Origin: Pirellula staleyi DSM 6068
Lineage (GTDB): Bacteria > Planctomycetota > Planctomycetia > Pirellulales > Pirellulaceae
Assembly: GCA_000025185.1 (NCBI GenBank)
Contig: CP001848.1
Coordinates: 3,480,001 to 3,512,000 of the forward strand
Direction: 5' to 3'
DNA: 32,000 bases
Position numbers and translations under genes: made by a program. Of this stretch, positions 2,463 to 32,000 are shown piece after piece (positions within the stretch are counted from its first letter, which is position 1; the number at the start of each line of letters is the position of its first letter). The notes beneath the pieces were generated by a model. The model was given only the letters and a program-made list of their open reading frames with translations, was not told the DNA's origin and searched no databases.

Positions 2463-2491
2463 AGTGCTGAAAAGGAACTGAGTGCCTACAA

Positions 2492-6436: not shown

Positions 6437-6473
6437 CGTCATGACTCCTTCGGGATGCGCCGGTGAGGGCATC

Positions 6474-8888: not shown

Positions 8889-8996
8889 CGGGCCCGCCTT
8901 TCTGGGTGATAGCCAAAGGGTCGAAACGTTGCATAGCGAATATCTTGTGGTAGCTGATCGTCAGGGTGGGGAAACTCGGTAGGTCCAGCTGCGGTC

Positions 8997-9929
8997 TTAG
9001 CCTCGCTGAATTGCCGACCGTCGCATGCGCTGCCTAAATGTCAGGTAGCTTCCGAGTACGGCATCAAGCGGGTCTTTGGTGTTCATCAGGACGTAGTCGA
9101 CGCCGCTCGATGCACAGGTCTTCTTCACGTCGGCCAAAAAGTTGCCGACTGCTTCGAGATAACCCTTGCGAAGTGCGCGAGGCTCGGTGTGCAGCTGCAC
9201 ATCGGTCTCGAGTCCTCGGAAGAGGGTGTTGTCTTGAAACGGGAAGGTCAACTCGTCGTCGTGCATCACATGAAACACGACAACTTCGTGGCGACGAAGG
9301 CGAAATTGCTTCAAGGCTTCGTTGAGTGTGGCAAGATCGAGAAAAAGGTCGGAGACCAAAATCACCATGCCGCGACGACGGACTTGCTGCGCGAGTTGGG
9401 GAAATACCTGCGCAACATCCGACGTTTCATCGGGGGTGGTGTTCTCCAGTTCGTGAAGCATCAGTTTGAGATGATTCGGGTGCGAACTAGCAGGGAGATT
9501 TTTGGTGATGCGGTTGTTGAAGGTCACCAGACCGACCGCATCTTGCTGCTGCTGCATCAAGTACGCCAGACTCGCAGTGGCTGTCGCGGCATAGTCGAAT
9601 TTGGAAGGCCCCTCGCCATACTTCATGCTCTTACTGCAGTCGAGAATGAGTGTGCATTTGAGGTTGGTTTCTTCCTCATACTCTTTGATGTAGAGACGAT
9701 CGGTTTTCGACCAGACTTTCCAGTCGATATGACGCAGGTCGTCGCCGGGGGTGTATTCGCGGTGCGTGGCAAATTCCACGGCGAAACCGTTATAGGGACT
9801 CCGATGCTGACCGGTGATGAAGCCTTCCACCACCAGCCGGGCGCGCACATCGAGTCGCTTCACGCGATCGAGCGTTTTCCAGTCGAGATAGCGAGGCTGA
9901 TTCGTTGCCCCAGGGCTCGTGACAGACAT
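8997..9929 (-). CDS. DUF58 family protein (vWA-like, MoxR-associated)
   Basis: The DUF58 signature reads GQHRSPYNGFAVEFATHREYTPGDDLRHIDWKVWSKTDRLYIKEYEEETN. LILDCSKSM gives a DxSxS motif. The gene sits directly downstream of moxR. Confidence 0.9.
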   Translation of the reverse strand: MSVTSPGATNQPRYLDWKTLDRVKRLDVRARLVVEGFITGQHRSPYNGFAVEFATHREYTPGDDLRHIDWKVWSKTDRLYIKEYEEETNLKCTLILDCSKSMKYGEGPSKFDYAATATASLAYLMQQQQDAVGLVTFNNRITKNLPASSHPNHLKLMLHELENTTPDETSDVAQVFPQLAQQVRRRGMVILVSDLFLDLATLNEALKQFRLRRHEVVVFHVMHDDELTFPFQDNTLFRGLETDVQLHTEPRALRKGYLEAVGNFLADVKKTCASSGVDYVLMNTKDPLDAVLGSYLTFRQRMRRSAIQRG

Positions 9930-9993
9930 CGTTGCAGGTTCGACTTTCGATTCTGAAGTGAGAACTACGAGGCCTTACGATCGCGGGTATCGA

Positions 9994-11058
9994 TTAGCTG
10001 CCAAATGCGCGAGCCAGAGCGGGGGGAACTTCGTCGCCAGCGCTACGTTGTGGAATGTCGGTGAGCAAGCGATCGATCACCTTATCGCTGGTGATGCCAC
10101 TCGACTCGGCGTTGAAGTTGGTGATCACGCGGTGACGAAGCACCGGATGGGCCACGGCGCGAATATCGTCGGTGGTGACAAAGAATCGCCCTTCGAGCAT
10201 CGCCCGAGCCTTCCCTCCCAGCAGCAGATACTGCATACCGCGAGGACCGGCACCCCAGCTGACCCAGTCCTTCATGAAGGCGGGTGCCTCTTGCTCGTGC
10301 ACGCGTGTGGCGCGAACCAAGCGGAGTGCGTAGTGAATCACATGCGGGGCAACCGGCACGCGGCGCACCAGTTGTTGCAAACGAATGATATCTTCAGCCG
10401 ACAGCACTTCTGTGACCGTCACGCTGCTAGGGGACGTGGTCGATTCCGCAATGCGATACTCTTCGTCGTAGCTGGGGTACTTCACGAAGACTTTGAACAT
10501 GAAGCGGTCTTGCTGGGCTTCAGGGAGAGGATAAGTACCCTCTTGTTCAATCGGGTTTTGCGTCGCGAGCACAAAGAACGGCGAGGGGAGCGTATGTCGC
10601 TGACCACCGATCGTCACCTGTCGCTCTTGCATCGCTTCGAGCATCGCGGCTTGCGTCTTGGGCGGCGTACGATTGATTTCGTCGGCCAGCACGATGTTCG
10701 AGAAGACCGGACCGGTGAGAAACTTAAACGCTCGTTCGCCGGTCGAGCGATTCTCTTGAATCACTTCGGTGCCGGTGATGTCGCTCGGCATCAAGTCGGG
10801 GGTGAATTGAATGCGGCTGAAGAGGAGCTTCAGCGACTTGGCCAGCGTGCTGACCATCAACGTCTTCGCCAGACCTGGCACACCTTCGAGCAAGCAGTGC
10901 CCTTGGGCAAAAATGGCGACGAGCAGCTGCTCGATCACAAGTTCCTGACCGACGATCACTTTGCCGAGTTCGGCCCGCACTGAAGCGTACGCCTTCTTCA
11001 GGTTCTCGAGCGCCTGCAAATCGTCAGCCGATGGTGCCTGATGAGTCTCTTGCGACAT
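9994..11058 (-). CDS. MoxR-family AAA+ ATPase
   Basis: Walker A is GVPGLAKT, Walker B is [24 protein letters not shown], and the [22 protein letters not shown] motif is present. The length of 354 aa is typical for the family. Confidence 0.95.
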
Positions 11059-11536
11059 GTTGCCAAATCCTGATGTCTCGAAGCGAGAAGTGTTGATGGA
11101 TGGAAGGTTGGTCGATTCGCGTTCAGCAGCGTCAGTTGCCGTGGTTCACACCTAAGACGAATTGGCCGGAGGAATCGTTTTGGACTCGATCACCGGGCAA
11201 TGGTCTCTGGCAGCAAACAGGGCAAACGATCCGCACGCGCCTCCGATTTTGAAGGTTGGAGCAGTGTTTGCCACGGAGTTTGCCGTTGTGGTGAGTGACT
11301 TTGGCGAGGGGAAAGGTTCAAGCAGTTTCGTGCGTGCTAGGCTGAATTCCCCAGCCCGTGGGGGAGAGGCGATTTCTATTCTAAATTCTGGCCAGCCAGA
11401 TACCAGCGAAATGCTTGCTCCAAGGGGAAACTTCGTCGACAATTCTTGACAGCCGAAGTGGTTGTCGCGATTCGAGTTCTGAAAATGCTCGCCTTGCCGA
11501 CAACAGCCCTAAGTCTCCTTCTCTGCGCGTGGCACT

Positions 11537-12628
11537 ATGCTCGACCCAGCCTTCGCAAATTTGGTGAAGGAAACGACGTCGCACCGACGTCCAGCGGTGT
11601 CGTGGCTGCTCGCCTGCGGATTGCATGGCTGCGTCGCCTTGGGAGGTGCATGGATGTTTGCCAGCAGCGACCTGCCGATGGCCCCTCCGGTGGCTGTTCG
11701 CGAGGCGGGAATCGTCATCGTGACGGCGCATGCGACCCCCCAGTACTTTGCCGAAAACCATTCTAACCGCTCGGCGGACACAACTGGTCAATCTGCTGGC
11801 CAGTCGCCAGATTTTGCGGCATCGCCCGAGGTTAATCCATTACCAATCTCCGCTGAGTTGCCCCAAATCGCTCGCCGTTTGCCGCAGCAGACCGAAGGCC
11901 CACCGTCCGTCGAGGGGACTGAACAAGAGGGGAAGCCAAGCGTGTCGTCGCTCGCCAGTTTTTCGCGCGAGACGAAGTCGCCCGGGGGCCGGCCGCTGCG
12001 CGAGATTCCGTCGATCGATGTTGCGGCTGTTATGGCCGACGAGCTGCGCCGCAATCCGCCAGCCGCCAAGCCGATTGGCGAGGTCGCCAGCTTTTCGATG
12101 TTTGGAGCAACAGCCCGTGGGCGCTCGTTTGTGCTGGTGATCGATCGCTCGCAAAGCATGGGGGGCGAGGGGCTGGGGGCGATCGCTGCCGCGATGCAAG
12201 AGCTTCAAGTGCAACTCGCTGCTCTCACGCCGCAGCAACGTGTGCAAGTGGTGGCGTATAACGATTCCGCAGCGCTCTATGGCGATGGACGACTCGTGCC
12301 GGTCACACCAGCCGAGCAAGAGAAGCTGGTTCGCTTTGTCGGTGGCATTGTGGCCAGTGGCGCCACGGAGCATCGGACCGGCATTCTAGCCGCACTAAGG
12401 CTCGCGCCCGAAGTCGTGTTTTTGCTGACCGATGGAGGTGACCCGCCGCTGTCGAATCACGATTTGCGAACACTGGTCGAAGCCGCCGCTGGTCGGACGC
12501 AGATTATCGTGCTCGAGTTCGGCCGTGGTAAGCTGTCCGAAGAGAATTCGCAGGACGAAAAACTGAAGAAGCTCGCTCAAGCGACTGGCGGCATGTACCG
12601 CTATGTCGATCTGCTCGACGAGCGCTGA
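11537..12628 (+). CDS. Membrane-anchored vWA domain protein, divergent from moxR
   Basis: ATG 11537 was verified. The N-terminal hydrophobic helix is VSWLLACGLHGCVALGGAWMFA. The MIDAS set comprises VLVIDRSQSMGG, SGATEH and FLLTDGGD. A Pro/Ser-rich linker separates the TM helix from the vWA domain. Confidence 0.8.
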   Translation: MLDPAFANLVKETTSHRRPAVSWLLACGLHGCVALGGAWMFASSDLPMAPPVAVREAGIVIVTAHATPQYFAENHSNRSADTTGQSAGQSPDFAASPEVNPLPISAELPQIARRLPQQTEGPPSVEGTEQEGKPSVSSLASFSRETKSPGGRPLREIPSIDVAAVMADELRRNPPAAKPIGEVASFSMFGATARGRSFVLVIDRSQSMGGEGLGAIAAAMQELQVQLAALTPQQRVQVVAYNDSAALYGDGRLVPVTPAEQEKLVRFVGGIVASGATEHRTGILAALRLAPEVVFLLTDGGDPPLSNHDLRTLVEAAAGRTQIIVLEFGRGKLSEENSQDEKLKKLAQATGGMYRYVDLLDER

Positions 12629-15130: not shown

Positions 15131-17041
15131 ATGGGTTATCGCAGCCTCAAAAAATATCTCGGGGAGACAAATCTCGAGCGCAAGTGCCGCTGGCTCTTCG
15201 GTATTTGTTTGTTTGGGCTGATTTTCTTTGCGTTCTTCCTGGTCGATTGGATCGGCGAAGACCTGGTGAAACGAAACATTCACCGCAATGGCCGCGAATG
15301 GGTACGCGATTTCCTCTACGACGCTCACTGGGAAGCCTGGGAAACCGATCCCACCAAAAAACCGGTCCGGGCGACCCTCAGCCGACTGCTGCTGCCGCAA
15401 AAGTTCGAGGCTCGCGTGATCGCCCTCGATCGCTCGCTCGTCGATGCCATGAATCAAGAGGGGCTGAACTTTCGCGAAGGTGAGAACCAGCAGCCTCGTC
15501 AGCGATTGTGGGCACCCGACGATCCTGAAGAAGCCAAACTGCTAGAGTCTCTGAAAAGCGATTTCGAGAAAGCACTCGCTCCCAAACCTGCGCTCACTTC
15601 CCCCTCCGATGCGCCGCTTCCTCCCGACGATCCGCTGGCGGAGACTTCCGGCGGTTTTGAAGTCTCCGACGAGGATGAACCGTTCAAAGCGCATCCCGAC
15701 CCTGAAAGTGGCCGGTACTATTTCTATCAACCAGTCTCGTGGCAGCATAATTTTTGCAAAAGCTGCCACGAAGGTTCGTATGGCAAGTTCGCCATGAGCG
15801 CGTCGGAATCGTTTGCGCCGCAGGAAGCCGATCTGCCGTTCTTGGTGGTTCGTGTTGCGCTTCCCTATAGCGACGCGCGTGCGGCGATCAACTGGACACG
15901 CGCCGTGCTGCTGGCGGTCGGCATTCTTACGGTCTTCATGTCGATGGTGGCGCTCTGGATGGTGGTGAAGTACGTCGTCATCAAGCCACTTTCGCACCTG
16001 CGAAGTGTGAGCGAAGCGGTGACGCGTGGCGATCTTCAGCAGCGGGCCGATATTCACACGAACGACGAATTCGAAGATCTCGCCGCATCGTTCAACAAGA
16101 TGCTCCGCCACTTAACCGACGCGCAGTCGGAACTGAAAGAAGCCAACTACGATCTCGATGCGAAAGTCGATCAGCTCGCGCAGCTGAATATGCGATTGCA
16201 TGAAATGAATCGTCTGAAGGGCGAGTTTCTCGCGAATATGAGCCACGAACTGCGCACCCCGCTCAACAGCATCATCGGGTTTTCCGAAGTGCTGGCCGGA
16301 ATCGATTCGCTCACCGATAAGCAAAAGCGTTACGCACAAAACATTCAAAAGTCGGGCCGTTCGCTCCTCGAAATGATCAACGACATCCTGGATCTCGCCA
16401 AACTCGAGGCGGGAAAAATGGATGTGCGTTTGAGTGAATTTCGTATCGATTCGATTCTTTCGGCTCACTGCGACATGGTGCGATCGCTCACCGAAGATAA
16501 GAACATCGATCTCGTCCTCGATATCGAAAACGATCTGCCGGCCCTCTATCAGGATCAAGCCAAGCTGCAGCAAATCCTGACGAATCTGCTCAGCAACGCT
16601 ATCAAGTTCACCCCCGAAGGTGGTCGCATCACCGTTGGCGCGAAAGGGGATTCGCGAGGTTTCATCGAGATGTATGTCTCCGACACTGGCGTGGGAATTG
16701 CCGATGCCGACAAAGAAATCATCTTCGAGAAGTTTCGCCAAGGGACCGCTGTGCTCGGTCGTGACAATCTCACGCGCGAGTACTCGGGAACCGGCCTGGG
16801 ACTCTCGATCGTTAAAGAGCTTTGCAAACTTCTCGGTGGTGAAGTGAGCGTCGAAAGTGAACTCGGACGCGGCAGCACGTTCCGTGTAACGATTCCTTGG
16901 ATGCGTGCCGATCAACCACAAGCAGCAGCGAAGTTGCAATCGCGACTCGATGATCTGACCAAGCCACGGCGGCTCGATTTTCAGCGTGGCGATGAACCCG
17001 ACACAACTTCCTCGAGTCAGCCAGCCGCTGCCGGTTCTTAG
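15131..17041 (+). CDS. Sensor histidine kinase (2 TM, extracytoplasmic loop with CXXCH, HAMP, HisKA, HATPase_c)
   Basis: TM1 is WLFGICLFGLIFFAFFLV and TM2 is AVLLAVGILTVFMSMVALWMVV. The HAMP region reads PLSHLRSVSEAVTRGDLQQRADIHTNDEFEDLAASFNKM. The H-box is FLANMSHELRTPLNSIIGF, the N-box is LLSNAIKFTPEGG, and the G-boxes are DTGVGI and GTGLGLS. No response regulator gene is present in the window. Confidence 0.9.
   Translation: MGYRSLKKYLGETNLERKCRWLFGICLFGLIFFAFFLVDWIGEDLVKRNIHRNGREWVRDFLYDAHWEAWETDPTKKPVRATLSRLLLPQKFEARVIALDRSLVDAMNQEGLNFREGENQQPRQRLWAPDDPEEAKLLESLKSDFEKALAPKPALTSPSDAPLPPDDPLAETSGGFEVSDEDEPFKAHPDPESGRYYFYQPVSWQHNFCKSCHEGSYGKFAMSASESFAPQEADLPFLVVRVALPYSDARAAINWTRAVLLAVGILTVFMSMVALWMVVKYVVIKPLSHLRSVSEAVTRGDLQQRADIHTNDEFEDLAASFNKMLRHLTDAQSELKEANYDLDAKVDQLAQLNMRLHEMNRLKGEFLANMSHELRTPLNSIIGFSEVLAGIDSLTDKQKRYAQNIQKSGRSLLEMINDILDLAKLEAGKMDVRLSEFRIDSILSAHCDMVRSLTEDKNIDLVLDIENDLPALYQDQAKLQQILTNLLSNAIKFTPEGGRITVGAKGDSRGFIEMYVSDTGVGIADADKEIIFEKFRQGTAVLGRDNLTREYSGTGLGLSIVKELCKLLGGEVSVESELGRGSTFRVTIPWMRADQPQAAAKLQSRLDDLTKPRRLDFQRGDEPDTTSSSQPAAAGS
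15755..15769 (+). other. CXXCH (CKSCH) c-type heme attachment motif inside the kinase sensor loop
   Basis: The codons TGC AAA AGC TGC CAC were read directly at 15755-15769, in the context YYFYQPVSWQHNFCKSCHEGSYGKF between TM1 and TM2. Confidence 0.6.
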
Positions 17042-21549: not shown

Positions 21550-21870
21550 CTAGCGCCAGTCGATCCAGATTCCGCCGGGTCCCCAGTGAACGTCGCTGAG
21601 AACCGCCTCGAGACAATCCCACAAAATCTCTCTCCAGGCCGGTTTGCGAAACTTTGGCATCGGGTTGCGGGTTAGTTTGAAGTGGAGAAGTTCGGCTCGC
21701 GATGGTCGAGCGTGACAAATGCGCAATTCTCGGCGGGAAATTTCCGGGAGCCATTGATTTTTTAGTTGCCGAATCGATCTACTAATTACTTCGATTTCGA
21801 GCAGAAAGTATTTGACTACTTCACCGTAGGGGCGTTGGTTCGATGCGTTCGATGTTTCGCAATTCGGCAC
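21550..21870 (-). CDS. Doubtful small ORF (106 aa, Trp-rich C-terminus) in an A/T-richer gap
   Basis: This rests only on an open frame. I recognise no motif in it. Its codons (AGT, AGA, CTA, AAA, AAT, ATT, TGT) are atypical for the window. Its 5' end overlaps the kinase start by 28 nt. Confidence 0.2.
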   Translation of the reverse strand: MPNCETSNASNQRPYGEVVKYFLLEIEVISRSIRQLKNQWLPEISRRELRICHARPSRAELLHFKLTRNPMPKFRKPAWREILWDCLEAVLSDVHWGPGGIWIDWR

Positions 21871-23279
21871 TTCTGAGCGGACTGGTTACCCAAGACCAGG
21901 TCGACGAGGCAATTGCGCATCTACGCTCGAGCGGATCTCTTTCGGCAACTGCGGTGGAACTCGACGATTCGCTTCTCGCCGCTCGACTTGTGGAGAAGGG
22001 GATTCTGACCCCCTATCAGGCCGATCAGATCCGTAGCGGACGCACCAAGCTGAACCTGGGGCCCTACATCATCACCGAATGGATTGGCCAAGGTGGTATG
22101 GGGCAGGTGTTCAAAGCACTCCACCAAGTGATGGGGCGCGAGTCGGCTGTAAAAGTGCTGCCACTCACCAAATCGACCCCGGAAGCGGTGAACAACTTCA
22201 ATCGCGAGATTCGAACCCAAGCGCAACTCGATCACCCGAACCTCGTGCGAGCCTACGATGCGGGGCGCGATGGCAATGTCCATTATCTGGTGGTCGAGTA
22301 TGTCCCCGGGACCGACCTGCGGCGGCTGGTTCGTTCGCAAGGCCCGCTCACGCAGCAGCAAGCGGCGAGTGTGATTTTGCAAGCAGCGCGAGGACTCGAG
22401 CACGCCCATCAGCGTGGTTTGATTCACCGCGATGTGAAGCCGGGCAACATTTTGGTGACGCCCAAGGGAATCGCAAAGGTTTCCGACCTCGGGCTAGCTG
22501 GATTCATGAACGAAGCAGAAGCGGATCCGCGCGCAGGAAAAATCGTCGGAACAGCCGACTATCTTTCGCCTGAACAGATTCGTACACCCACCGAGATCAC
22601 GCATGCGAGCGACATCTACTCGCTCGGTTGCACGCTCTACTACGCCGTCTGCGGCAAAGTTCCATTTCCTGGAGGAACCGCCCGCGACAAAGCGCGGCGG
22701 CACTGCGAAGAAACGCCTTGGCACCCTCGACGCTTCAACCTCGATCTGCACGAAGAGTTTGTCGACGTTATCGCCGACATGATGGAAAAAGATCCGCGCA
22801 ACCGCATTCCTACCGCCTCGGAAGTGGTGGCTCGTCTTGAGCAATGGGCCGGTGATGCGAGCCCCATTGCTGCACGCTCGGCCATTCGCAGCCCCTGGAC
22901 AGCACCGCCGCTGCCAGCAGCTCCCGATGGCGAAGATCGCGCCGACAACCTGCAAGATACCGATGGTGGCGAGCCCAGCAGCGGACTCGAGAGCCCGAGT
23001 CAAATTTCGCAGCTGTCGCAAGCTTCGCAGCAAACCGCTTCGCAAGGTGCTGCGAGCCAAGAGACCCTTCCGGCCAAGCCTGGACGGATTCGCCCCGTAA
23101 CTGCTGGTGCCACTGGCTCAGGAAGTTCGGCCCTCAGTAGCGCGAGTGGAATTTTCTCCACACCCATCTCGAAGTGGCCAACGACCACGGTGGTAGCCGT
23201 CACACTTGCGGTGGCTGTTCCCGTGTCGATGTTCGTCGGCGCACTCGTCGCCTCCGTGCTCTTCTATCTGATGCGCTAA
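21843..23279 (+). CDS. Ser/Thr protein kinase, C-terminally tail-anchored, with a helical module of about 70 aa at the N-terminus
   Basis: The Gly-loop is IGQGGMGQVF, the conserved Lys lies in SAVKVL, and the catalytic loop is HRDVKPGNILV. A DLG triplet replaces DFG, and GTADYLSPEQ is present. The C-terminal helix is VVAVTLAVAVPVSMFVGALVASVLFYLMR. Confidence 0.9.
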   Translation: MRSMFRNSALLSGLVTQDQVDEAIAHLRSSGSLSATAVELDDSLLAARLVEKGILTPYQADQIRSGRTKLNLGPYIITEWIGQGGMGQVFKALHQVMGRESAVKVLPLTKSTPEAVNNFNREIRTQAQLDHPNLVRAYDAGRDGNVHYLVVEYVPGTDLRRLVRSQGPLTQQQAASVILQAARGLEHAHQRGLIHRDVKPGNILVTPKGIAKVSDLGLAGFMNEAEADPRAGKIVGTADYLSPEQIRTPTEITHASDIYSLGCTLYYAVCGKVPFPGGTARDKARRHCEETPWHPRRFNLDLHEEFVDVIADMMEKDPRNRIPTASEVVARLEQWAGDASPIAARSAIRSPWTAPPLPAAPDGEDRADNLQDTDGGEPSSGLESPSQISQLSQASQQTASQGAASQETLPAKPGRIRPVTAGATGSGSSALSSASGIFSTPISKWPTTTVVAVTLAVAVPVSMFVGALVASVLFYLMR

Positions 23280-24910
23280 CTTCCGGCGGCTGGTGAAGTT
23301 GGCGGCGCTGGCGGTCCGGTGAAAGGATCGGCAGGTGTTCCCGAACCGGGCGATGAAGCAGGCACAGGCGCTGCGGCAGGCTGAGTAGGGGCTACAGGTG
23401 CTGCTGGTGCAGGCTGCGGAGCTGTTGGCGCGGCTGCACCGCCCGCTTTTCTCTTGGCGAGTTCTTGTGCCAGGATGCTCGCTGTGTCGCTTTTTACAAA
23501 CTGAGGAACAAGCCCTCGCGCTGTTGTGAACAGCTTATCGATGCGGGCTTGGGTCGCTTTGTCGGTCGAACTGATCCGCTGCGACTGCTGATCGATCGCA
23601 CGCTGCAAATTCTCTCCCGAATCGAGTTCGCGAAATTGATCGAGCAGCACCTGCGCTTCGTCAATTTTTCCCTCCGCTAACCGTTTACGAAATCGGGCAG
23701 CGGCTAGCTCTCGCTGTGCAACGAGATCCATGATGCGGCTTTGAAAACTAACCACGACACCTTCCGCTTCTAGTCGTGGCGTGTCGTCGGGAAGCGACGC
23801 GACAAGTTCACTCTCTTGACCAGGAACCAGCGGAAGTCGGGCCAATAGTTGCTGGCCACTTTTCACCAGCAGCACTTGAATACCGAGCGATGCTGGAAGT
23901 CGCACGGCGCCGCGCCAATCGCTCACGCCAATCAGAGTTGCATCTTCGCCCGTTTCGCTTCGTAGATAAACGCCATAGCCCACGAGGGGCTGTGGATTGG
24001 TGCCGCGCGATTGCAGCACGAGATCGGTCACCGGCGCTTGAGGCTTCACAACGAAAGCAAGTCGCTCGGTTCGTTGGCCACCTTTCACAGGAATGGCGTA
24101 GCGAAATCCCGAGATCAATTCGCCAGTCAGTTGAGCACCAGTGCGCGACGTGGTGCGAATGAGGGACCATGGCACCGATTGAATGCCTCCCTTCATCGGT
24201 TCCCCTTTGCGATCGTTGCGCCGAACGACAGGGCGCAGCACCGCTTGATCGGTGATGGCGGCTGGTTGGATGTCATTCGTCACAAGCCCACCCGCTCGAG
24301 CGCGCCCTGCGAGTTTGTTGCCGTCGACGCGCTCGATGCGCATCATCGGTGTGAATGCACGAACGACTCCATCGACAGCCGCATACGGAACCAAACTCCG
24401 CTCTAGCGATGGACGAAAGAATTTGCCAAGCCATAGCTCGCTCCTGACATCGAACTCACCAACGCGGAGATCGATGGTGCCGTCGAGCGACTTCGATCGA
24501 GCAGCGTGAATCAGCATCAGCTTGTCGAACTTGGCATACTCGGGCAGAAGTTCCTTCAGCCGATCGCGCGTGATATCTGCGGGGGATTCAGCGAGTTCAG
24601 CCTCGAGCGCGGGGCTCGCGAGCATCACCTGCGATTGCCAAGTGGCACGGAACATCAACTCACCCTGCTCGAGCACCTGACGCTCGATCGCCTGTTCGAG
24701 CAAGTCAGGATCGGGCAGAGCAGGGGAGACTGCAATCACCAGCTGCACCCGGTACGGATTGAATTCCCAAGCCGATTGTGCATAAAGCCGCGAGGTGCCA
24801 AAGCTAAGTCCGCTGACCAGTAGCACAATTGCGAGCGATAGTCTTGCTAAATAGATCGGCATCGACTGGCACGAGAAGCTGCGGAGAAAACAGGAGCGAT
24901 GATGGTGCAT
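23276..24910 (-). CDS. Exported protein of unknown function with a coiled-coil-like segment and a Pro/Ala-rich C-terminal tail
   Basis: The long ORF shares the orientation of its neighbours. ATG 24910 overlaps the upstream stop as TGATG; an alternative ATG at 24862 gives MPIYLARLSLAIVLLVSGLSFGTSRLYAQ. I recognise no family motif. Confidence 0.75.
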   Translation of the reverse strand: MHHHRSCFLRSFSCQSMPIYLARLSLAIVLLVSGLSFGTSRLYAQSAWEFNPYRVQLVIAVSPALPDPDLLEQAIERQVLEQGELMFRATWQSQVMLASPALEAELAESPADITRDRLKELLPEYAKFDKLMLIHAARSKSLDGTIDLRVGEFDVRSELWLGKFFRPSLERSLVPYAAVDGVVRAFTPMMRIERVDGNKLAGRARAGGLVTNDIQPAAITDQAVLRPVVRRNDRKGEPMKGGIQSVPWSLIRTTSRTGAQLTGELISGFRYAIPVKGGQRTERLAFVVKPQAPVTDLVLQSRGTNPQPLVGYGVYLRSETGEDATLIGVSDWRGAVRLPASLGIQVLLVKSGQQLLARLPLVPGQESELVASLPDDTPRLEAEGVVVSFQSRIMDLVAQRELAAARFRKRLAEGKIDEAQVLLDQFRELDSGENLQRAIDQQSQRISSTDKATQARIDKLFTTARGLVPQFVKSDTASILAQELAKRKAGGAAAPTAPQPAPAAPVAPTQPAAAPVPASSPGSGTPADPFTGPPAPPTSPAAGS

Positions 24911-27288
24911 CAGCGGGCTCCTGCGGTGAGAGAGGCGGGATATGTTGGTCTGCTACTTTGTGCGGTGGCGGCAGCAGGAGCAAGCCAGCGATCGATATCT
25001 TGATACAGCGAAATACGGGGACCTTCGAGCACCACGCGATCTTTGCGATAAGCGTAATGATCGACCAACTGCCAGAGCGGCAGGACTTCTACTTCTTCAT
25101 GAACAAGGCGGTGCAGTTGAGCTAATCGCTGCCGCGCAACTTGCCAGTTACGAGCCCCATCAAGCTGTTGCAGCGATAATTTAATGAACGGGTTGTTCGT
25201 CGGAGCAATCCCCAACTCGCCGAACAGCCGCGAGGCGTCGGTGAGAGGTTCCCAAGCCGCCAGTTGGCGGTAGACCAAATCGCAGCTTCCGTCAGGATCA
25301 TCAAATACCCCCGGTGGAAACTCTTTCAAGGTGCATTCGATCTTGAGGAGCTTCCACTGAGCCTTAATTGCGCGACAAGCAATGCGGCTGGTTTCGTCGG
25401 CGGGATGTCCGAGCACGAGGGGCTCGAGTTTGGGTACCGCTTCCATCGCTTTCTCTTTGGCCGAACGAATTTCAGCTTCCGCCAAAATGCGTAGTGTGGC
25501 TGCGAGTCGTGGATCGTACGGGCGCGGGAGAACCGTTTCGTCGTAGGCATACGCCCCTTGCTGATTCCCTTCAAAGGGAGCCGGAAACGGACCACTCACG
25601 AGTTGTGAACCAGCAATCTGTCGATCCCCAAGCAGACCTTTGTCGAGAATCAGCTGGCGGTTGATGCCATACAGCAGAGCGCGCCGAAAGGTCCGGTTCG
25701 AGAGAAACGGATGGTTCATCCGCACGGTCAGCAGATGGGTTGTCGGGACGTTGTAAGGAGCGACGACGATATTCGGATCGCTTGAAAATGCGTTAATATC
25801 CCCAGGAAAGAGGGCATCAATGACATCGATTTCGCCCCGCCTTAGTCCGTTGATCGCGCGGTCGGTGTCGTCGTAGACTCGCTCGGCCACTTCGCTCGGA
25901 CTGCTCGGAGTTGTCTCGGTCGACTGAGCACGCACGAGTCGCATCACCGTGCTGTCTTGCGCGAGAATTGCGTACTGCTTCAGGTTGCCGACCCCGGTGG
26001 TTGGCAGAGGAACATTCCGCAGCAAAGCCTGCGGCATGACGTGGAGCAACTTGAACTCCGTGATCACCCGCGCGGGACTGGCAACGCGCACGCTGTCGAT
26101 AGTGCGGGCCCAGGCGGCATTGAATTCGTCGCTCGCCGGATCGGCAGTTCGCAGTAGCACGTTCGACAGCCAAACTGCAGCCGGCATTTCTCCTTGGGCA
26201 TTGCTCGCCGCAGCTAGCGCCGGGGGCAAGACAAACGTCAGCTGCAGTCCATCTTCGGATAGCGTGGTGGTGCCAAGTGGCGAGGCATACACGCCCCCTT
26301 CAGCGGTGAGTGATTTCAGCTGCATCAGCGTCGCCGAAGTGAGTTGCCCCGTTCGGCGGGCTGCCGGATTTTGCAAACTCGTCGGCGCGAGTTCGTGAGC
26401 AGGATGCGTTACACCGATGACGACGCGAGGATATAAGCGTCGCAGTTCCGCCACGAGGGCCGCGCCCCCTTCGACCTCGGGCCAAACGGCCTGCATGTTC
26501 GATAGCTCATCGTGCGCTTCGGCAAAACGTTTCGCTTTCAGATGTTCCGCAGCAGCATCGCGATGAATGGCGGCTAGCGAGTCGAGCTGTTCACGCCACT
26601 TTTTAGCAAACGTTTCATTCGATGCTTTGTAAGTCGTTTCGAGTCGCTTCAGCAGCGTGCGTGTGCTGGAATAGTCTTCCTTCTCGAAATAGCCCGCCAA
26701 CATGCGATCGGCAATATTTCCGAGCACCGCCATCAAGGTGGGAGCCGTTTCACTCGCTCGATATTGCGGGTTCTGTGCCCACAGCTCTTCAAGGACCGCC
26801 AGCGCCTCGTCGTACTTATGCTTACTAAAAGCAGCCCCGGCCGATCGGTAAAGGAACGACTCGCGCGAGTTCTTCAGCCCGTCGAGCTTCGGGTAATAGT
26901 CCAGCAAGAAGACCAGGTAGTCGAACGCTTCATCGAGCTTGCCATCGGCGATCAACTTGTCGGTCTCTGCCAGTACGATCTGTTCGTAGAGCTCCAGTTT
27001 TTTGATATCCCCCCAAGCGATTTCGAACTCACGCGCATCGTTAACCAGTCGCAAGCGAAGTTTTTCTGTTGGGCGCGGATTCGACGGCACCAGTCGTCCA
27101 GGAAGCTTGAGAGGCTGAACGACTAGCACTTGGGGCATCCCCATCTCTTCGATCGTGATGCGATCGAACGGGACCTGCTGATAGAGTCGCTTCCCTCCTT
27201 GCGCTGAAACTTCGCGCGACCATGCCGACACCAGCGCCAGCCAGGCGAGTGCAAGAAGAATCGGTTTAGCGAAGTGTGGCGAAAGCAT
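24910..27288 (-). CDS. Family-5 (peptide/nickel type) solute-binding-protein-like exported protein with a TPR-like N-terminal extension
   Basis: The signal peptide is MLSPHFAKPILLALAWLALVSAWSREVSAQ. The SBP_bac_5-like core reads GEIDVIDALFPGDINAFSSDPNIVVAPYNVPTTHLLTVRMNHPFLSNRTFRRALLYGINRQ. The window contains no permease or ATPase genes. Confidence 0.8.
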   Translation of the reverse strand: MLSPHFAKPILLALAWLALVSAWSREVSAQGGKRLYQQVPFDRITIEEMGMPQVLVVQPLKLPGRLVPSNPRPTEKLRLRLVNDAREFEIAWGDIKKLELYEQIVLAETDKLIADGKLDEAFDYLVFLLDYYPKLDGLKNSRESFLYRSAGAAFSKHKYDEALAVLEELWAQNPQYRASETAPTLMAVLGNIADRMLAGYFEKEDYSSTRTLLKRLETTYKASNETFAKKWREQLDSLAAIHRDAAAEHLKAKRFAEAHDELSNMQAVWPEVEGGAALVAELRRLYPRVVIGVTHPAHELAPTSLQNPAARRTGQLTSATLMQLKSLTAEGGVYASPLGTTTLSEDGLQLTFVLPPALAAASNAQGEMPAAVWLSNVLLRTADPASDEFNAAWARTIDSVRVASPARVITEFKLLHVMPQALLRNVPLPTTGVGNLKQYAILAQDSTVMRLVRAQSTETTPSSPSEVAERVYDDTDRAINGLRRGEIDVIDALFPGDINAFSSDPNIVVAPYNVPTTHLLTVRMNHPFLSNRTFRRALLYGINRQLILDKGLLGDRQIAGSQLVSGPFPAPFEGNQQGAYAYDETVLPRPYDPRLAATLRILAEAEIRSAKEKAMEAVPKLEPLVLGHPADETSRIACRAIKAQWKLLKIECTLKEFPPGVFDDPDGSCDLVYRQLAAWEPLTDASRLFGELGIAPTNNPFIKLSLQQLDGARNWQVARQRLAQLHRLVHEEVEVLPLWQLVDHYAYRKDRVVLEGPRISLYQDIDRWLAPAAATAQSSRPTYPASLTAGAR

Positions 27289-27348
27289 GCGATGATGGGC
27301 TGCGATGTGTGCCGTCTAAGGAAGGGAAAACGTTTCGCGAGCAAAATT

Positions 27349-30300
27349 CTAGGGGCTTGCCGGTTTGGGAATCGTGACAAACAGCAATTGACCATCGGCG
27401 GCGGCGACAGCGAGTCGCGTTTCAAGCACGGCATTCACGCCAGTCACGACGCGTCCAATTTCGCCCGTCGCAATGATTTTTCCCGTCGCTCCCTCCACAC
27501 GGACCAGCTTGCCACTGGTGCTCACCAGTAGCAGATCGCTTCCGAGCACCACCGGCGGGCCAGCGAGTTGATCGCTGTAGTCGAGGATCCACTTAGTTTC
27601 ACCATCAGCACCAAGCGCGATGATCCCTTCGGGCTGCGTAGCGACGAGCACCAAATCGAGCGCCGCAAAGGGACCACTCGTCACTCGTCCGGCAAGTTTT
27701 TTGGTCTCGGTGACCGCGAGTGTTTGCGGGTGGATGGTCACTAGGCTGTCGACCGCTTCACCACGTCCCACACCAACGATCGTGCTGGCCACGCGGGCGA
27801 GTTGCTTAGCGAGTGGAAGCGTTGAAGTGGATTCTCCAGCAAGCGCCAATTGCGGTGGTGTCCCCGCACGCTCGACCAGTTTGTAGAGCATCACACCCCC
27901 GTCGGAGAGGAGAATGTTTTTGCCATCCTCCAGGAGTAGTGGCGAGAGCCAGGGGAACTTCGCGCCTGCTTTCAGCGGCGGAGTGAATGGGAAGATCGGG
28001 GCCTCACCTGTGAGAGGATTCACCGCTTGCACAGGCCCTTTTTCGAGCGGCACAATCACCGAACTCCCGAGGACGAGTGGCGTGCAACGAGAGCTTCCAT
28101 CGATCGAGCTGAACTCGGTGTAGCGGCTCTTCTCTTTCTCTTCGAGGTTGCACAGGATACCGCGATTTCCGGTTCCAAAGCCGCTGATCAAATACTGATT
28201 GTTGCCGAGATTCGAGAGCTGCGACAGCGAAATCGGACCACCTCCGAGAGGTGGTGTGAGCTGCGGAGTTGCGTAAAGTCCTTGTCGCAGTGCATCCCGC
28301 GGAATGCTGTAGAGCAGCCCTCCACGGGTGGCTGCAAAAACTTCGGAGCGAGGCTGATGAATCAGCACCGCAGCGAGTTGCTGCGCGATGCGTGTGGTCC
28401 AAATCGCTTTGCCGTCGGCCGGATTGCAGGCCTCTACCAAAATGCCATCTTGCGTTCCGCGGCGACGCGCGTGCACCAGCACTCCACCAGAAAACTGCAG
28501 TGGCGCGACGAATCGATCCCCCGGGTGAAGTGTCCAGCGCCGAGCTAGTTGTGCGAGAGACGCTTGAATTTCGTAAGCACTCGCGCGAGTGCCTACGAGC
28601 CAGACCTGATTGGCTTCGACAGCTGGGTAGGTTGTCGTGGGTTCCGAATCGGTCGCTTCGAGTTTGCTGATCTCGCGAACGCTCTGCTGCGGGCTCGTGG
28701 GGTCGATCTCGATGACCGATGTTTGGCCAAGATCGGTCACCGCAATCACCCGGCGACTTGCTGTGAGCAGCGGTTCGGTAATTCGTCCCGCGAGCCGAAA
28801 CACTTTGCTCGTCGGTTGAAGCTGTTTGTTCTCGCCGGTTGGGGCGAGTGTTCGCAGCACGCTGTAGTTGATCCCCGGGCTCTCCGCGATCACCACATGG
28901 TCGAGCACCACCAGCGGCGGAACAAGAATCGAACCTTCAAGATGCCCCAGAAAACTCGTCTCTTCACACGCCAGCGTTTCCATCCGCAGGGCGAACAGCG
29001 TGCTGTGATCTCCCAGTTGATAGATGCGGCTGCGGCGCGAATCGAGACCAACAGCGGTACTCAGTTTCTGAGGAAGTTTGACCTGCCGTGGCGATGTTCC
29101 GTCGGCCAGCGCGATCTCGTAGATCGTCCCACTTTCGCAGCTGATGTAGGCGACGTCGGTTCCTACCACTGGACCAAAAAAACGTTCCCCTGGCGCGTGT
29201 CGCCACTTGATGCTGCCGGTCGCTGGCTCGAAACAGCAGAGAGTGCTCGTGCGCACATCGACAGCGAGCCAGTCGCCCGTCGGAGTCACCACAACGGCAG
29301 GGGCTCCCTGTCCTAGATACTTGTGCCACTTGAGAGCACCAGTGCCGAGGTCAAACGCATGGAGGCTTCCTTCGACAACCACAGGAACCAATCCGGTTGT
29401 GGCTCCTGTCCCTGCGGTTTCCGCATGCGAAAGCGCGATCGCAATCACACCTTCGGCAGCGGCAGCGGGGGCAGCAGGAAGGGGATTGTCACGCACTTCA
29501 ATTTGCAATTGTTCCCCTTGCGACAGCCGATATGTCGCCGCCATTAACGATTCGGAAATTTCGAGGGCTGGATACTTCTTGAGCAGTTCGCGGCGCGTGG
29601 CGTAGCCGGTCGCGGCTTGATTTTGGTCCGCAGCGGCCGTCATTTTTTCGACGGCCGTTTGCAGATCTCGATCTTGATCGATACTGCGCCGCGCGGCATC
29701 GAGTTTCTCGATGATCTGACTGATCCGCACTTCCTGATCTTTGCGTAGAGACGACGGAATGTACGACGGATTGTTCACCAGCGCGATCGCCGCTTCGGTC
29801 TTGGCGACAAGTTCAACGCGCTTCGCGGTGTCGGGTTCGTCTTTCGCTTTCGTGGCAAATCCATCAGCAATATCGGGCAAGATCGACGCCAGTTCGGTAC
29901 GGGCTTCATTGAACGATTCGGTCTCCACCTCAATTTGCGGCAACACCTGCTGCGCTGCTTTCAGGCCTTGCACCGGATCGCTCGCTTTATCGGTCACTTG
30001 GCGAATCTGCGCCATACCACGACGCACACGTGCGAGGCTGCTGTTAGGGTCGCTCGGATACTTTTTCAGAAACTCATCGAACACCGCGATCGCCGTGGAG
30101 TACGATCCGCTCCGATAATCCTCTTCCCCTTTTTGAAACAGCTCTGATGCCGAGCCACGCGTAAGCGAGTAGACCAGTAGGCCTGCAGCCAGCAGCAGCA
30201 CGCCGAGAGCGCCGCCACCAATGAGCAGCAGCGGAGAATCCCACTGGTTCTTCTTTTTCGGTGGAACAACAACACCGGCTGCTGCAGCGGGTTGACCAAG

Positions 30301-31131
30301 CGGACCAGCGAGAGGACCTGCCAAAGGGCCACCCATGAGTGGATCGCTCCCCAGTGGAGCAGGTCCTGCAATGGGATCGACCGCAAACAGATCGTCGATC
30401 GGGGCCGGACCGCTGGGGACGGACAGCGGCGTCAATTCCGTCAGAACTTCCAGATTATCTTCAACCGGAGGCGCGATGGAGGGGGGAGAAATCGGGGCAG
30501 GCTTGCTCTCGCGCTTAGGTGGTGTCGAGCCAGGTTTCTCGAGCGTCTTGAAGCCACGCGGCGCAGGTTGAGGCTTAGGTTTGGGTTCGCTTTTCGGAGG
30601 CGAAGGAGCAGCTTCTGCTTTGGGCTTCTCGGGCTTCGGCTCCACTGGCTTTGAGGACGATTTTGGATTCTCGTCGAAGTCGAGAGGGGCCATGTCGATC
30701 GAGTCGTGAGCCGATGGCGCAGGGGCCACAGGAACCGGCGCTGCTGCAGGAGCCTGGGGAGCCGCTGGAACTGCGGGCTCGAGGTCCACTAGCTCATCGA
30801 GCGGATCGACTTTCGCCGCAGCAGGTGCCGCAGGCTCGAGGTCGACAATGTCCTCTTCTTCCTCAATCGGGAGCATCTCTTTCGCAGGAGCTTTGGTCGG
30901 TGCAACTGCTTGACGCGTTGTGGTGGGAGCATCGGTCGCTTCACTCGCCGACGCGACTAATTTACGCGCTTGAAAATTCGTCAGGTGCTCGTGATCGACC
31001 AGAACTTTGGCCAGCGCTTCGGGAGTGACAATAAACTTCGATTCGCGCAGCTGACGACGCAGTTCGGAGATCACCTTCTCTTCCAGCAGACCTTGTTGCT
31101 CCGCCAGGTCGAGCATCTTCGAAGCCGACAT
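27349..31131 (-). CDS. 1260-aa single-pass membrane protein: cytoplasmic helical N-module plus Pro-rich region, TM, periplasmic TPR-like region and PQQ/BamB-like beta-propeller repeats
   Basis: ATG 31131 was verified. KKKNQW precedes the TM helix LLLIGGGALGVLLLAAGLLVYSL (30166-30234), so the N-terminus is predicted to be inside. A TPR-like segment reads YRSGSYSTAIAVFDEFLKKYPSDP. Propeller signatures include TGALKWHKYLG, TGSIKWRHAPG, DGKAIWTTRI and DGETKWILDY. Confidence 0.85.
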   Translation of the reverse strand: MSASKMLDLAEQQGLLEEKVISELRRQLRESKFIVTPEALAKVLVDHEHLTNFQARKLVASASEATDAPTTTRQAVAPTKAPAKEMLPIEEEEDIVDLEPAAPAAAKVDPLDELVDLEPAVPAAPQAPAAAPVPVAPAPSAHDSIDMAPLDFDENPKSSSKPVEPKPEKPKAEAAPSPPKSEPKPKPQPAPRGFKTLEKPGSTPPKRESKPAPISPPSIAPPVEDNLEVLTELTPLSVPSGPAPIDDLFAVDPIAGPAPLGSDPLMGGPLAGPLAGPLGQPAAAAGVVVPPKKKNQWDSPLLLIGGGALGVLLLAAGLLVYSLTRGSASELFQKGEEDYRSGSYSTAIAVFDEFLKKYPSDPNSSLARVRRGMAQIRQVTDKASDPVQGLKAAQQVLPQIEVETESFNEARTELASILPDIADGFATKAKDEPDTAKRVELVAKTEAAIALVNNPSYIPSSLRKDQEVRISQIIEKLDAARRSIDQDRDLQTAVEKMTAAADQNQAATGYATRRELLKKYPALEISESLMAATYRLSQGEQLQIEVRDNPLPAAPAAAAEGVIAIALSHAETAGTGATTGLVPVVVEGSLHAFDLGTGALKWHKYLGQGAPAVVVTPTGDWLAVDVRTSTLCCFEPATGSIKWRHAPGERFFGPVVGTDVAYISCESGTIYEIALADGTSPRQVKLPQKLSTAVGLDSRRSRIYQLGDHSTLFALRMETLACEETSFLGHLEGSILVPPLVVLDHVVIAESPGINYSVLRTLAPTGENKQLQPTSKVFRLAGRITEPLLTASRRVIAVTDLGQTSVIEIDPTSPQQSVREISKLEATDSEPTTTYPAVEANQVWLVGTRASAYEIQASLAQLARRWTLHPGDRFVAPLQFSGGVLVHARRRGTQDGILVEACNPADGKAIWTTRIAQQLAAVLIHQPRSEVFAATRGGLLYSIPRDALRQGLYATPQLTPPLGGGPISLSQLSNLGNNQYLISGFGTGNRGILCNLEEKEKSRYTEFSSIDGSSRCTPLVLGSSVIVPLEKGPVQAVNPLTGEAPIFPFTPPLKAGAKFPWLSPLLLEDGKNILLSDGGVMLYKLVERAGTPPQLALAGESTSTLPLAKQLARVASTIVGVGRGEAVDSLVTIHPQTLAVTETKKLAGRVTSGPFAALDLVLVATQPEGIIALGADGETKWILDYSDQLAGPPVVLGSDLLLVSTSGKLVRVEGATGKIIATGEIGRVVTGVNAVLETRLAVAAADGQLLFVTIPKPASP

Positions 31132-31224
31132 GAATCACCACCACTACGAGAGATCAAGGTTCAGTTTCAAGGATTTGTCCCACACTTGCAGCCCACACCC
31201 AAGCGCGTTGCAAGCTTCACACAC

Positions 31225-32000
31225 CTACGGCGCTTCGTCATCCTCCACGCTCAGCAGTTGCACTTCTTCCATCCCGACATCGTTCCCCGCATCGATTGCC
31301 ATCACCACGCGTTCGTGCAGCGCTTCACCACTGGCGATGACCAGCATTTTCGTGGGGACCGAGCTTCCACCATCTTCACGAGCCTGACGCAATTTTACCA
31401 GCAATTCCTGCTCGCTAGGGGCTTCTCGTTCGTCGTCCCAGTGGGCGGCAGAAACATAAAACGTGTTCAGCGAATCGACTCGTACCACCACATAGTCGGG
31501 GTTCTCTTCATAGTCCTCGACCGATTTCGCTTGCGTACTCGGTTGATCGCTTTCAGGCTTCGGAATGCTGAGCGATTTCTGCATCGTGAACGAAGCGGTC
31601 ACCATGAAAAAAATCAGCAGCAGGAAGGTGACGTCGACCATCGGCGTCATGTCCATGTCAGCCTCTTGCGGCTGACGCGTCTTACGTTTCATCGAGGGTC
31701 GCGGGGGCTCGTCTTCTTCGTCCACAGCAGCAGGTGGTCGCGGGGGGGAACCTTTCCAGCGAGATTCGCCACTTATCGCAAACGGAGGGGGAGCTGTTTC
31801 CTCATCAACCACCGCCAGTGTCGCGAGTCGTTCGTCGCTAAATGGTTCCACCGATGCATCGGAGGCGTAATTCGGCTCCATCACCACGGTCATTTGCAAG
31901 TCGGAATCGGGAACTTGCACGATGTCGAGTGCAGCCTCATCGCCGGCAACAGCCGCTGCTGATTCGTCTGCAGCGACATCGATAAACAGGTCGCTTGGGT
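31225..32000 (-). CDS. ExbD/TolR-family biopolymer transport protein; the frame stays open to the right edge (possible long acidic N-extension or partial gene)
   Basis: The core is MKRKTRQPQEADMDMTPMVDVTFLLLIFFMVTASF followed by a periplasmic domain. The canonical-looking ATG is at 31692. The track start at 31920 is a GTG. My translation of 31921-31998 in the same frame has no stop (PSDLFIDVAADESAAAVAGDEAALDIV..), so the true start is unresolved. Confidence 0.8.
   Translation of the reverse strand, partial: PSDLFIDVAADESAAAVAGDEAALDIVQVPDSDLQMTVVMEPNYASDASVEPFSDERLATLAVVDEETAPPPFAISGESRWKGSPPRPPAAVDEEDEPPRPSMKRKTRQPQEADMDMTPMVDVTFLLLIFFMVTASFTMQKSLSIPKPESDQPSTQAKSVEDYEENPDYVVVRVDSLNTFYVSAAHWDDEREAPSEQELLVKLRQAREDGGSSVPTKMLVIASGEALHERVVMAIDAGNDVGMEEVQLLSVEDDEAP

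Follow-up and report, generated by a model that had tools for sequence, protein, structure and literature searches.

What does an ExbD-type protein energise when neither TonB nor a TonB-dependent receptor is encoded beside it? The question is raised by a locus of the planctomycete Pirellula staleyi DSM 6068, at the right end of a 32,000-nucleotide (nt) stretch of CP001848.1. We call this whole stretch the window, and coordinates refer to it unless a contig is named. To our knowledge, 5:2 motors of the ExbB/ExbD-TolQ/TolR type are the only known means of delivering energy to the periplasm and outer membrane in diderm bacteria. Almost all knowledge of these motors comes from the Ton, Tol, flagellar and gliding/type IX secretion systems. 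Planctomycetes divide without FtsZ. The Tol-Pal system is reported to be largely reduced in Planctomycetes (PMC8871954), and the players in planctomycetal macromolecule uptake into the enlarged periplasm are described as unknown (PMC12673574). At the Pirellula locus, four genes encode an ExbD/TolR-family protein (ExbD2), a propeller protein (Prop1260), a protein resembling solute-binding proteins (SBPs) (SBP792) and an exported protein (U544). They make up the distal half of a cluster of eight genes that is conserved in Pirellulales. We propose, with a probability of roughly 45%, that the cluster encodes an uncharacterised envelope system driven by the proton motive force, in which the motor acts via another cluster protein, up293, on an assembly of Prop1260, SBP792, U544 and up581.

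The four genes were re-read on the minus strand at the positions given in the table. They are co-oriented as the first-pass annotation had described, with a gap of 93 nt between ExbD2 and Prop1260, a gap of 60 nt between Prop1260 and SBP792, and a 1-nt overlap (TGATG) between SBP792 and U544. Because each of the four proteins has dozens of full-length homologues, the open reading frames (ORFs) are real genes and not chance ORFs. The first visible gene does encode an ExbD/TolR-family protein (PF02472, matched at aa 111-249 of the 257 aa that are visible; 72 bits, with the cut-off at 25.4). The signal or transmembrane (TM) segments ascribed to the other three were recovered by hydropathy, as a TM helix at aa 302-320 of Prop1260 and signal-like N-termini in SBP792 (aa 6-24) and U544. 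The ExbD2 frame stays open as far as base 31998, so that the GTG start listed for a 231-aa protein is an artefact of the window edge. A promoter and terminator scan of the window gave no signal above chance inside the visible part of the cluster, and neither an Rfam nor a tRNA scan found a match in the window.

The genes past the right edge are seen in a conspecific 15.6-kb contig from ENA, L036. It carries P0001, which is 100% identical to Prop1260 in the best local alignment. L036 matches window positions 22422-32000 with 98.56% nt identity over 9585 nt, and it extends 5980 nt past the right edge. Beyond the edge, genes for up581, up293, ExbB (215 aa), ExbD1 (158 aa) and ExbD2 (335 aa) lie in one orientation and are followed by the trio of the window, Prop1260, SBP792 and U544. 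ExbD1 and ExbD2 overlap by 4 nt. An exbB/tolQ-type gene had been expected just past the edge; it is present in L036, where a MotA_ExbB protein is encoded at a distance of 1.1 kb from the edge, and also in 17 of the related loci. The cluster order is up581, up293, ExbB/TolQ, ExbD1, ExbD2, Prop1260, SBP792 and U544, often with a Ser/Thr kinase gene after it. The same eight genes with a convergent kinase gene are found in L001, from a 68%-identical relative, and a Blastopirellula relative (L029) likewise carries the whole cluster. The operon is not led by ExbD, as had been claimed from the window alone, since ExbD2 is the fifth of the eight genes in the related loci and in the conspecific contig. 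The up581 protein of L036 has 560 aa, is exported and shows a HEAT_2 match and weak squalene-cyclase/TED-like ones; as a cluster member, up581 is a periplasmic alpha/alpha-toroid plus HEAT protein of 581 aa.

About 90 homologues of Prop1260 were found at E <= 0.001, and the named ones all come from Pirellulaceae or related planctomycetes. Genome loci (28 from a search seeded with an 8-sequence alignment, plus several more) were scored with a hidden Markov model for each family, and 30 were informative. ExbB-ExbD1-ExbD2 stands directly upstream of the Prop gene in 17 of these 30 loci. In nine, up293 is directly upstream with no motor between; in one (L014), the motor is inverted between up581 and up293; and in three Anatilimnocola-like loci the trio stands alone. 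Adjacency of the Prop and SBP genes is kept in 27 of the 28 loci with enough downstream sequence.

The first-pass annotation had made its reading depend on synteny in relatives, and the linkage of motor and trio persists at about 26-27% protein identity. L035 has the complete eight-gene order though its Prop protein is only 27% identical. L032, from a distant marine lineage whose U544 protein is 26% identical, carries ExbB, ExbD, ExbD, an extra propeller paralogue, the propeller, SBP, U and kinase genes in this order, and it also keeps the Maf and pseudouridine-synthase neighbours. ExbB orthologues keep 56-71% identity across the loci, and the identity of Prop drops to 27%. The cluster is split up in Anatilimnocola, as in Anatilimnocola aggregata ETAA8 and NA78: the up581-up293 pair and the Prop-SBP-U trio each stay intact but lie apart, and in Anatilimnocola aggregata the pair stands alone. 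The cluster is thus made of three usually fused modules, namely the up581-up293 pair, the motor and the trio. Recurrent fusion of this kind is classic gene-neighbourhood evidence for shared function.

Two of the loci have peculiarities of their own. In L032, the extra Prop paralogue (833 aa, L032:1507-4008) lies between the ExbD2 and Prop genes, and the kinase gene is co-oriented, not convergent. L016 (8403-18270) is the sole locus in which the Prop gene is not followed by SBP-like and U544-like genes; a rearrangement or a co-assembly artefact is possible there.

The motor belongs to the ExbB/ExbD families. The MotA_ExbB match reaches 88 bits and the two ExbD matches 69 and 68 bits, above the Pfam cut-off. 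Among the NCBIfam models, tolQ (73 bits against a cut-off of 221) and tolR (43-46 bits against 127, with 46 bits for the visible ExbD2) fit best, and not exbB or exbD. Since every score falls far short of its equivalog cut-off, the motor is a divergent branch of its family. ExbD2 has the one hydrophobic segment with a protonatable Asp, TPMVDVTFLLLIFFM, that marks the family, and every ExbD1 and ExbD2 orthologue compared keeps this Asp. ExbD1 is a plain ExbD. ExbD2 orthologues, such as the full-length protein at L036:5749-6756, have in addition an acidic linker and, at the cytoplasmic N-terminus, a double zinc ribbon (F-x-C-P-x-C ... R-C-P-x-C). This extension lies outside the Pfam ExbD match, which covers profile positions 4-124 and aa 189-327 of the protein.

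None of the usual partners of such a motor was detected. Neither the ORFs of the 32-kb window nor the precomputed Pfam lists for L001, L002 and L031-L036 contain a TonB_C (PF03544), TolA, Pal/OmpA or Plug/barrel match; whole genomes were not searched. The absence of a TonB C-domain, TolA, Pal and a TonB-dependent barrel had been noted from the window, and it extends to the annotated related loci. The same loci contain no canonical TonB with a receptor nearby that could give ExbD another reason to be there. Furthermore, no cluster protein has an OmpA-family match or a lipobox Cys.

Which protein, then, would receive the force of the motor? We favour up293 over Prop1260 as the candidate transducer. 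The gene adjoins exbB, and its product of about 300 aa has the three-domain shape of TonB and TolA. The AlphaFold2 (AF2) model of up293 shows a TM helix at residues 16-47, disordered segments and a C-terminal domain (CTD) at residues 148-290 with a predicted local distance difference test (pLDDT) score of 85-90. The cytoplasmic N-terminus is short, and Asp18 is invariant. Conservation in the TM helix is periodic on one helical face, with only 1.65% of shuffles reaching the observed moment. The helix is followed by a conserved motif of alternating hydrophobic residues, PAVPVxVLE, and then by a GGGGSGD run. The linker is disordered and acidic/Gly-rich, with one helix. PAVPVxVLE is reminiscent of the strand known in TolA and TonB as the "motor box"; it presumably resembles SIDAVMVD of E. 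coli TolA.

The CTD of up293 has no Pfam or NCBIfam match, and the profile of up293 gave only noise against PDB sequences. Comparisons of the CTD by hhalign were negative with the CTDs of E. coli TonB and TolA and with the periplasmic domains of the ExbD proteins of the cluster. A profile of the CTD alone found 1037 clusters at 50% identity, nearly all of 270-330 aa with the domain C-terminal. Rare fusions join it to zf-HC2 plus Pkinase, to a BlaR1-type Peptidase_M56 plus VWA, and to leucine-rich repeats (LRR) with weak STN/FecR_C (P0323, P0364, P0373, P0396). The M56 and LRR fusions with a source name are from Pirellulaceae and Pirellulales. The CTD is apparently a mobile, Pirellulales-centred domain, and it seems to behave as a lineage-specific periplasmic interaction domain. 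The top Foldseek matches of the CTD were of the GHKL/Hsp90 type and were rejected as not significant, none being below E 0.1.

Prop1260 would be the inner-membrane platform on which the force acts. In Pfam it is matched by PQQ_2 (64.6 bits in two stretches) and by weak TPR/YfiO/YbgF models. The TPR region scores 18.5 bits with YfiO and also matches TPR_14/16; TIGR03302 (24.5 bits) and TIGR02795 (22.2 bits, aa 330-379) are, like the others, below their cut-offs. A membrane-coat-like reading was rejected, as the order of propeller and solenoid is reversed relative to that architecture. Homologues carry BamB and BamD among their annotation names; these were also rejected, on scores far below cut-off and on the wrong topology.

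SBP792 matches SBP_bac_5 at 74.7 bits against a cut-off of 32.4. It has a near-complete family-5 fold at about aa 340-770 (bases ~24979-26271) and an extra N-terminal region of about 300 aa with a weak TPR_19 match. The profile of its family (335-755) aligns to residues ~50-530 of the solved family-5 proteins AgaA, AccA, NikA, DppA and OppA. In the window, as in the annotated related loci, SBP792 has no co-oriented ABC permease or ATPase genes beside it, so the first-pass description of it as an orphan is correct. The FtsX/ABC pair of L035 is unrelated and lies on the opposite strand.

U544 has no Pfam, NCBIfam or PDB sequence match. Its AF2 model, however, reaches a pLDDT of 88.7. Foldseek against the PDB gave the LPHT ring (5e-9), FlgT (8e-8) and TolB (1e-6, via the N-terminal domain), as well as LpoB-C, CsgG and DUF330, with low global TM-scores to these structures (0.17-0.26). 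U544 had been described as a cargo-binding or scaffold component. The modelled FlgT/TolB-N-like fold supports the scaffold part, and U544 is more plausibly a FlgT/TolB-N-like scaffold than a binder of cargo.

Gene content, synteny, domains, folds and topology are observed, and from them we infer how the proteins may contact each other and in which direction force may flow. An ExbB pentamer around an ExbD1/ExbD2 heterodimer would form a 5:2 proton-driven motor. The motor would act on up293. The CTD of up293 would then engage a periplasmic assembly of the inner-membrane-anchored Prop1260, SBP792, the U544 scaffold and up581. The cytoplasmic tail of Prop1260 would tie this assembly to control by a Ser/Thr kinase.

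Several points weigh against this mechanism. The trio stands without an adjacent motor in 13 of the 30 loci. The gene for up293 lies outside the window and for this species is seen only in the conspecific contig, and its CTD has no PDB match by Foldseek (best E 0.13). The SHLS/His motif, as defined in PMC12204202 and used by TonB, TolA and vWA transducers, is absent; the TM helices of up293 and Prop1260 contain no His in any orthologue. No component encoded in the cluster belongs to the outer membrane or binds peptidoglycan. The TolB-N-like fold seen in U544 is a generic one of the periplasm, common to LpoB, CsgG and DUF330, and the YbgF and BamD matches of Prop1260 are far below the family cut-offs.

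The kinase gene next to the cluster opens a different reading. Prop1260 and the kinase STK478 share an N-terminal motif of about 30 residues, LVxxGxLTxxQAxxL, at 21843-22070 in the kinase (hhalign probability 94%, E 1.4e-7). BLASTP of the two N-termini found nothing, and only the profile comparison showed the likeness. In L034, a distant Prop orthologue has an FHA domain at the position of this module (28.2 bits against a cut-off of 20.7). A kinase gene is adjacent in nine loci, some of them very distant, namely the window, L001, L022, L023, L025, L028, L030, L032 and L036. Together, these three observations suggest phospho-regulation of the cytoplasmic tail of Prop1260, and the cluster is probably regulated by Ser/Thr phosphorylation. 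The trio and the kinase could then be mainly a periplasmic sensing module, with SBP792 as co-sensor, Prop1260 as the TM receptor half and STK478 as the kinase half; the motor would either have no more than a loose association with them or power signalling across the envelope. The fusions of the up293 CTD to kinase, BlaR1-type and LRR/STN/FecR_C-like proteins also fit a sensing role. However, the kinase gene is absent from the neighbourhood in most loci, and linkage to the motor and up293 is more frequent than linkage to the kinase. U544 and up581 have no obvious sensing role. We therefore regard sensing as the main function of the module as rather unlikely, although regulation and mechanics can coexist and the two readings are compatible.

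The U544 and STK478 genes, which are convergent, overlap by 4 nt at their 3' ends (23276-23279). Their stop codons, TAG and TAA, interlock, so that a terminator has no space between the two genes.

In the first-pass annotation, Prop1260 itself was the energised partner, an analogue of TonB, and the SBP-like and 544-aa proteins were cargo binders or scaffolds for the uptake of polymers or peptides. The gene does lie directly downstream of exbD2 in the 17 loci with an upstream motor, the bitopic topology with the N-terminus inside matches TonB, and the SBP fold could bind a ligand. In addition, the motif NxWDSPLLLxGGG at the cytoplasmic end of the TM helix is nearly invariant in 27 orthologues, beyond what a passive anchor needs. 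The TM helix and its flank supplied the most conserved peptide patterns in the search for related loci, and such conservation argues for a specific membrane partner. Conservation in the helix has no helical periodicity, however, as 44% of shuffles reach the observed value, and the SHLS/His motif is lacking. Prop1260 is unlike known transducers in that its Pro-rich disorder of about 230 aa is cytoplasmic, across the membrane from where a TonB-like rod would need it. The TPR region begins within about eight residues of the TM helix, with no periplasmic linker or strand motif before it. The trio often occurs apart from the motor, as given above, no outer-membrane channel for uptake is encoded, and it is up293, with the true TonB/TolA architecture, that adjoins exbB. 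Prop1260 is thus a weaker candidate than up293, and we consider it unlikely to be the transducer. Of the earlier interpretation as a whole, the predicted exbB, the synteny, the absence of TonB and the orphan SBP stand, while the leading position of ExbD falls and an energised Prop1260 is unlikely.

It is very improbable that the adjacency is meaningless and that a general Ton/Tol motor serves a canonical TonB or TolA whose gene is somewhere else. In favour of this view, 13 of 30 loci lack the motor in the cluster, and Anatilimnocola has its modules scattered. Against it, the same order, the orthologous ExbB and the ExbD1/ExbD2 pair are kept as Prop drops to 27%, ExbD1 and ExbD2 overlap, promoter or terminator signals do not exceed chance within the window part, and the scores of the motor proteins lie far under the equivalog cut-offs of Ton and Tol.

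How does the proposed up293-coupled system relate to known ones? It resembles Tol-Pal in that the best NCBIfam models of the motor are tolQ and tolR, and up293 has the bitopic TM-linker-CTD organisation of TolA. A TolB-N-like fold is present in U544, and a propeller and weak YbgF-like TPR are present in Prop1260, as if the Tol repertoire were redistributed over different polypeptides. The TolB-N-like fold is thus on one protein and the PQQ-type propeller on another, membrane-anchored one, with no sequence-level match to TolB. CpoB/YbgF was not recovered, as the TIGR02795 score of Prop1260 compares with a cut-off of 90.1 and the match is limited to aa 330-379. In contrast to Tol-Pal, the cluster has two heterologous TolR-like proteins, one of them zinc-ribboned, and scores far below the equivalog cut-offs. 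It lacks the SHLS motif, a TolA/TonB-type CTD, a Pal/OmpA-like lipoprotein and YbgC. Its propeller is PQQ-type and anchored in the inner membrane, and it adds SBP5-like, alpha-toroid/HEAT and Ser/Thr kinase proteins. Since most defining features fail, the cluster is not a member of Tol-Pal.

TonB-ExbB-ExbD is similar in its ExbB/ExbD families with the TM Asp, and the order of transducer-like gene, exbB and exbD resembles tonB-exbB-exbD. The differences are the lack of TonB_C, SHLS/His, Plug and barrel in the window and the annotated related loci. As for the physiological output, which we likewise infer, a Tol-like role in organising or tethering the envelope is more plausible than TonB-type import, because of the TolQ/R-like, TolB-N-like, propeller and YbgF-like TPR repertoire and the lack of a barrel.

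A similar genetic arrangement is found in the same superphylum, in the vWA-type transducer clusters of Planctomycetes-Verrucomicrobia-Chlamydiae (PVC) bacteria. These consist of a gene for a TPR protein, a gene like tolQ, two heterologous tolR-like genes and a vWA transducer (PMC12204202). The arrangement of tolQ with two tolR genes is the same as here, and by analogy these clusters are a precedent for non-TonB transducers beside such genes in PVC bacteria. However, neither up293 nor another cluster protein has a vWA domain, the up293 CTD lacks a PDB match and its TM helix lacks SHLS/His, and propeller, SBP-like and FlgT-like partners are not described in PMC12204202. The occurrence of non-TonB transducers beside tolQ/tolR in PVC bacteria was published in 2025 (PMC12204202); searches of the accessible literature found no description of the present cluster. 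Possibly, though we hold this only tentatively, the cluster encodes a trans-periplasmic machine specific to Pirellulales and driven by the proton motive force, in which up293, as a novel class of force transducer, replaces TonB/TolA, and the Prop1260 platform of TPR and two propellers, with SBP-like and FlgT-like partners, replaces TolB, CpoB and Pal.

Two further comparisons concern single proteins. The best structural matches of U544 are to FlgT of the Vibrio H-ring (3w1e) and the LPHT ring (8z5n), over about 300 columns. Both U544 and FlgT are exported, have a TolB-N-like domain followed by beta domains and occur in the context of a 5:2 stator-type motor. U544, however, has no detectable sequence similarity to FlgT, no flagellar genes nearby, and an added helical region and Pro-rich tail. 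Prop1260 shares PQQ-type repeats with BamB and YfiO-like TPR with BamD. BamB (TIGR03300) is a single-propeller lipoprotein of about 390 aa, whereas Prop1260 scores 63 bits against 285, is far longer, has a TM helix and has no lipobox. It differs from BamD (24.5 bits against 81.4) in its inner-membrane anchor and cytoplasmic tail and in lacking a lipoprotein signal.

The cluster joins a motor to five lineage-specific envelope proteins, of which two are bitopic and three exported, and a Ser/Thr kinase. It is therefore a genetically testable candidate for energising and regulating a periplasmic process in Pirellulales, and it would add a transducer class to the vWA-type ones of PMC12204202. If the tentative reading with a novel transducer class is true, such a machine could supply the energy coupling that is still missing for remodelling of the envelope, or for the uptake of macromolecules into the enlarged planctomycetal periplasm.

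Table. Positions in the window of the cluster genes, their domains and other envelope-type genes (aa, amino acids of the encoded protein)
Feature	Position	Strand	Remarks
ExbD2 (ExbD/TolR-family)	31225..>=31998, runs to 32000 edge	-	N-terminus cut by window edge
ExbD2 TM helix MVDVTFLLLIFFMVTASFT with conserved proton-binding Asp	31585..31641	-	by hydropathy
Prop1260 (1260 aa, single-pass inner-membrane, N-terminus cytoplasmic)	27349..31131	-	
Prop1260 cytoplasmic N-terminal module, aa 1-62	30946..31131	-	well conserved
Prop1260 cytoplasmic Pro/Ala-rich linker, aa 63-291	30259..30945	-	~230 aa, disordered; column conservation 0.19-0.34
Prop1260 juxtamembrane motif N-x-W-D-S-P-L-L-L-x-G-G-G and TM helix, aa 295-323	30163..30249	-	nearly invariant in 27 orthologues
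Prop1260 periplasmic helical/TPR region, aa 329-560	29452..30147	-	weak BamD/YfiO, YbgF/CpoB-like matches
Prop1260 periplasmic PQQ-type beta-propeller region, aa 580-1260	27352..29394	-	two PQQ_2 stretches
SBP792 (792 aa, exported, family-5 SBP-like)	24910..27288	-	
U544 (544 aa, exported)	23276..24910	-	
U544 TolB-N/FlgT-N-like alpha/beta domain, aa 53-205	24296-24754	-	
U544 beta-sandwich domains, aa 224-373	23792-24241	-	
U544 long helical region, aa 377-488, then disordered Pro-rich tail	23447-23782 (helical)	-	
STK478 Ser/Thr protein kinase, C-terminal TM anchor	21843..23279	+	Pkinase 193 bits; TM aa 450-468
VWA protein	11537-12628	+	
MoxR AAA+	9994-11058	-	AAA_3; bpMoxR match 5.6e-11
DUF58	8997-9929	-	
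BatA/VWA	6474-8888	-	
Two large PQQ-propeller plus HEAT proteins	2492-6571; 627-2657	-	

Elsewhere in the window, a second envelope-type gene set lies at 627-12628 (last five rows of the table). It resembles the Bat/aerotolerance arrangement or the ternary arrangement of MoxR, vWA and beta-propeller proteins. Between 12662 and 14982, two minus-strand ORFs of 383 and 411 aa without a Pfam match lie beside a HAMP/HisKA histidine kinase gene (15131-17041, plus strand).

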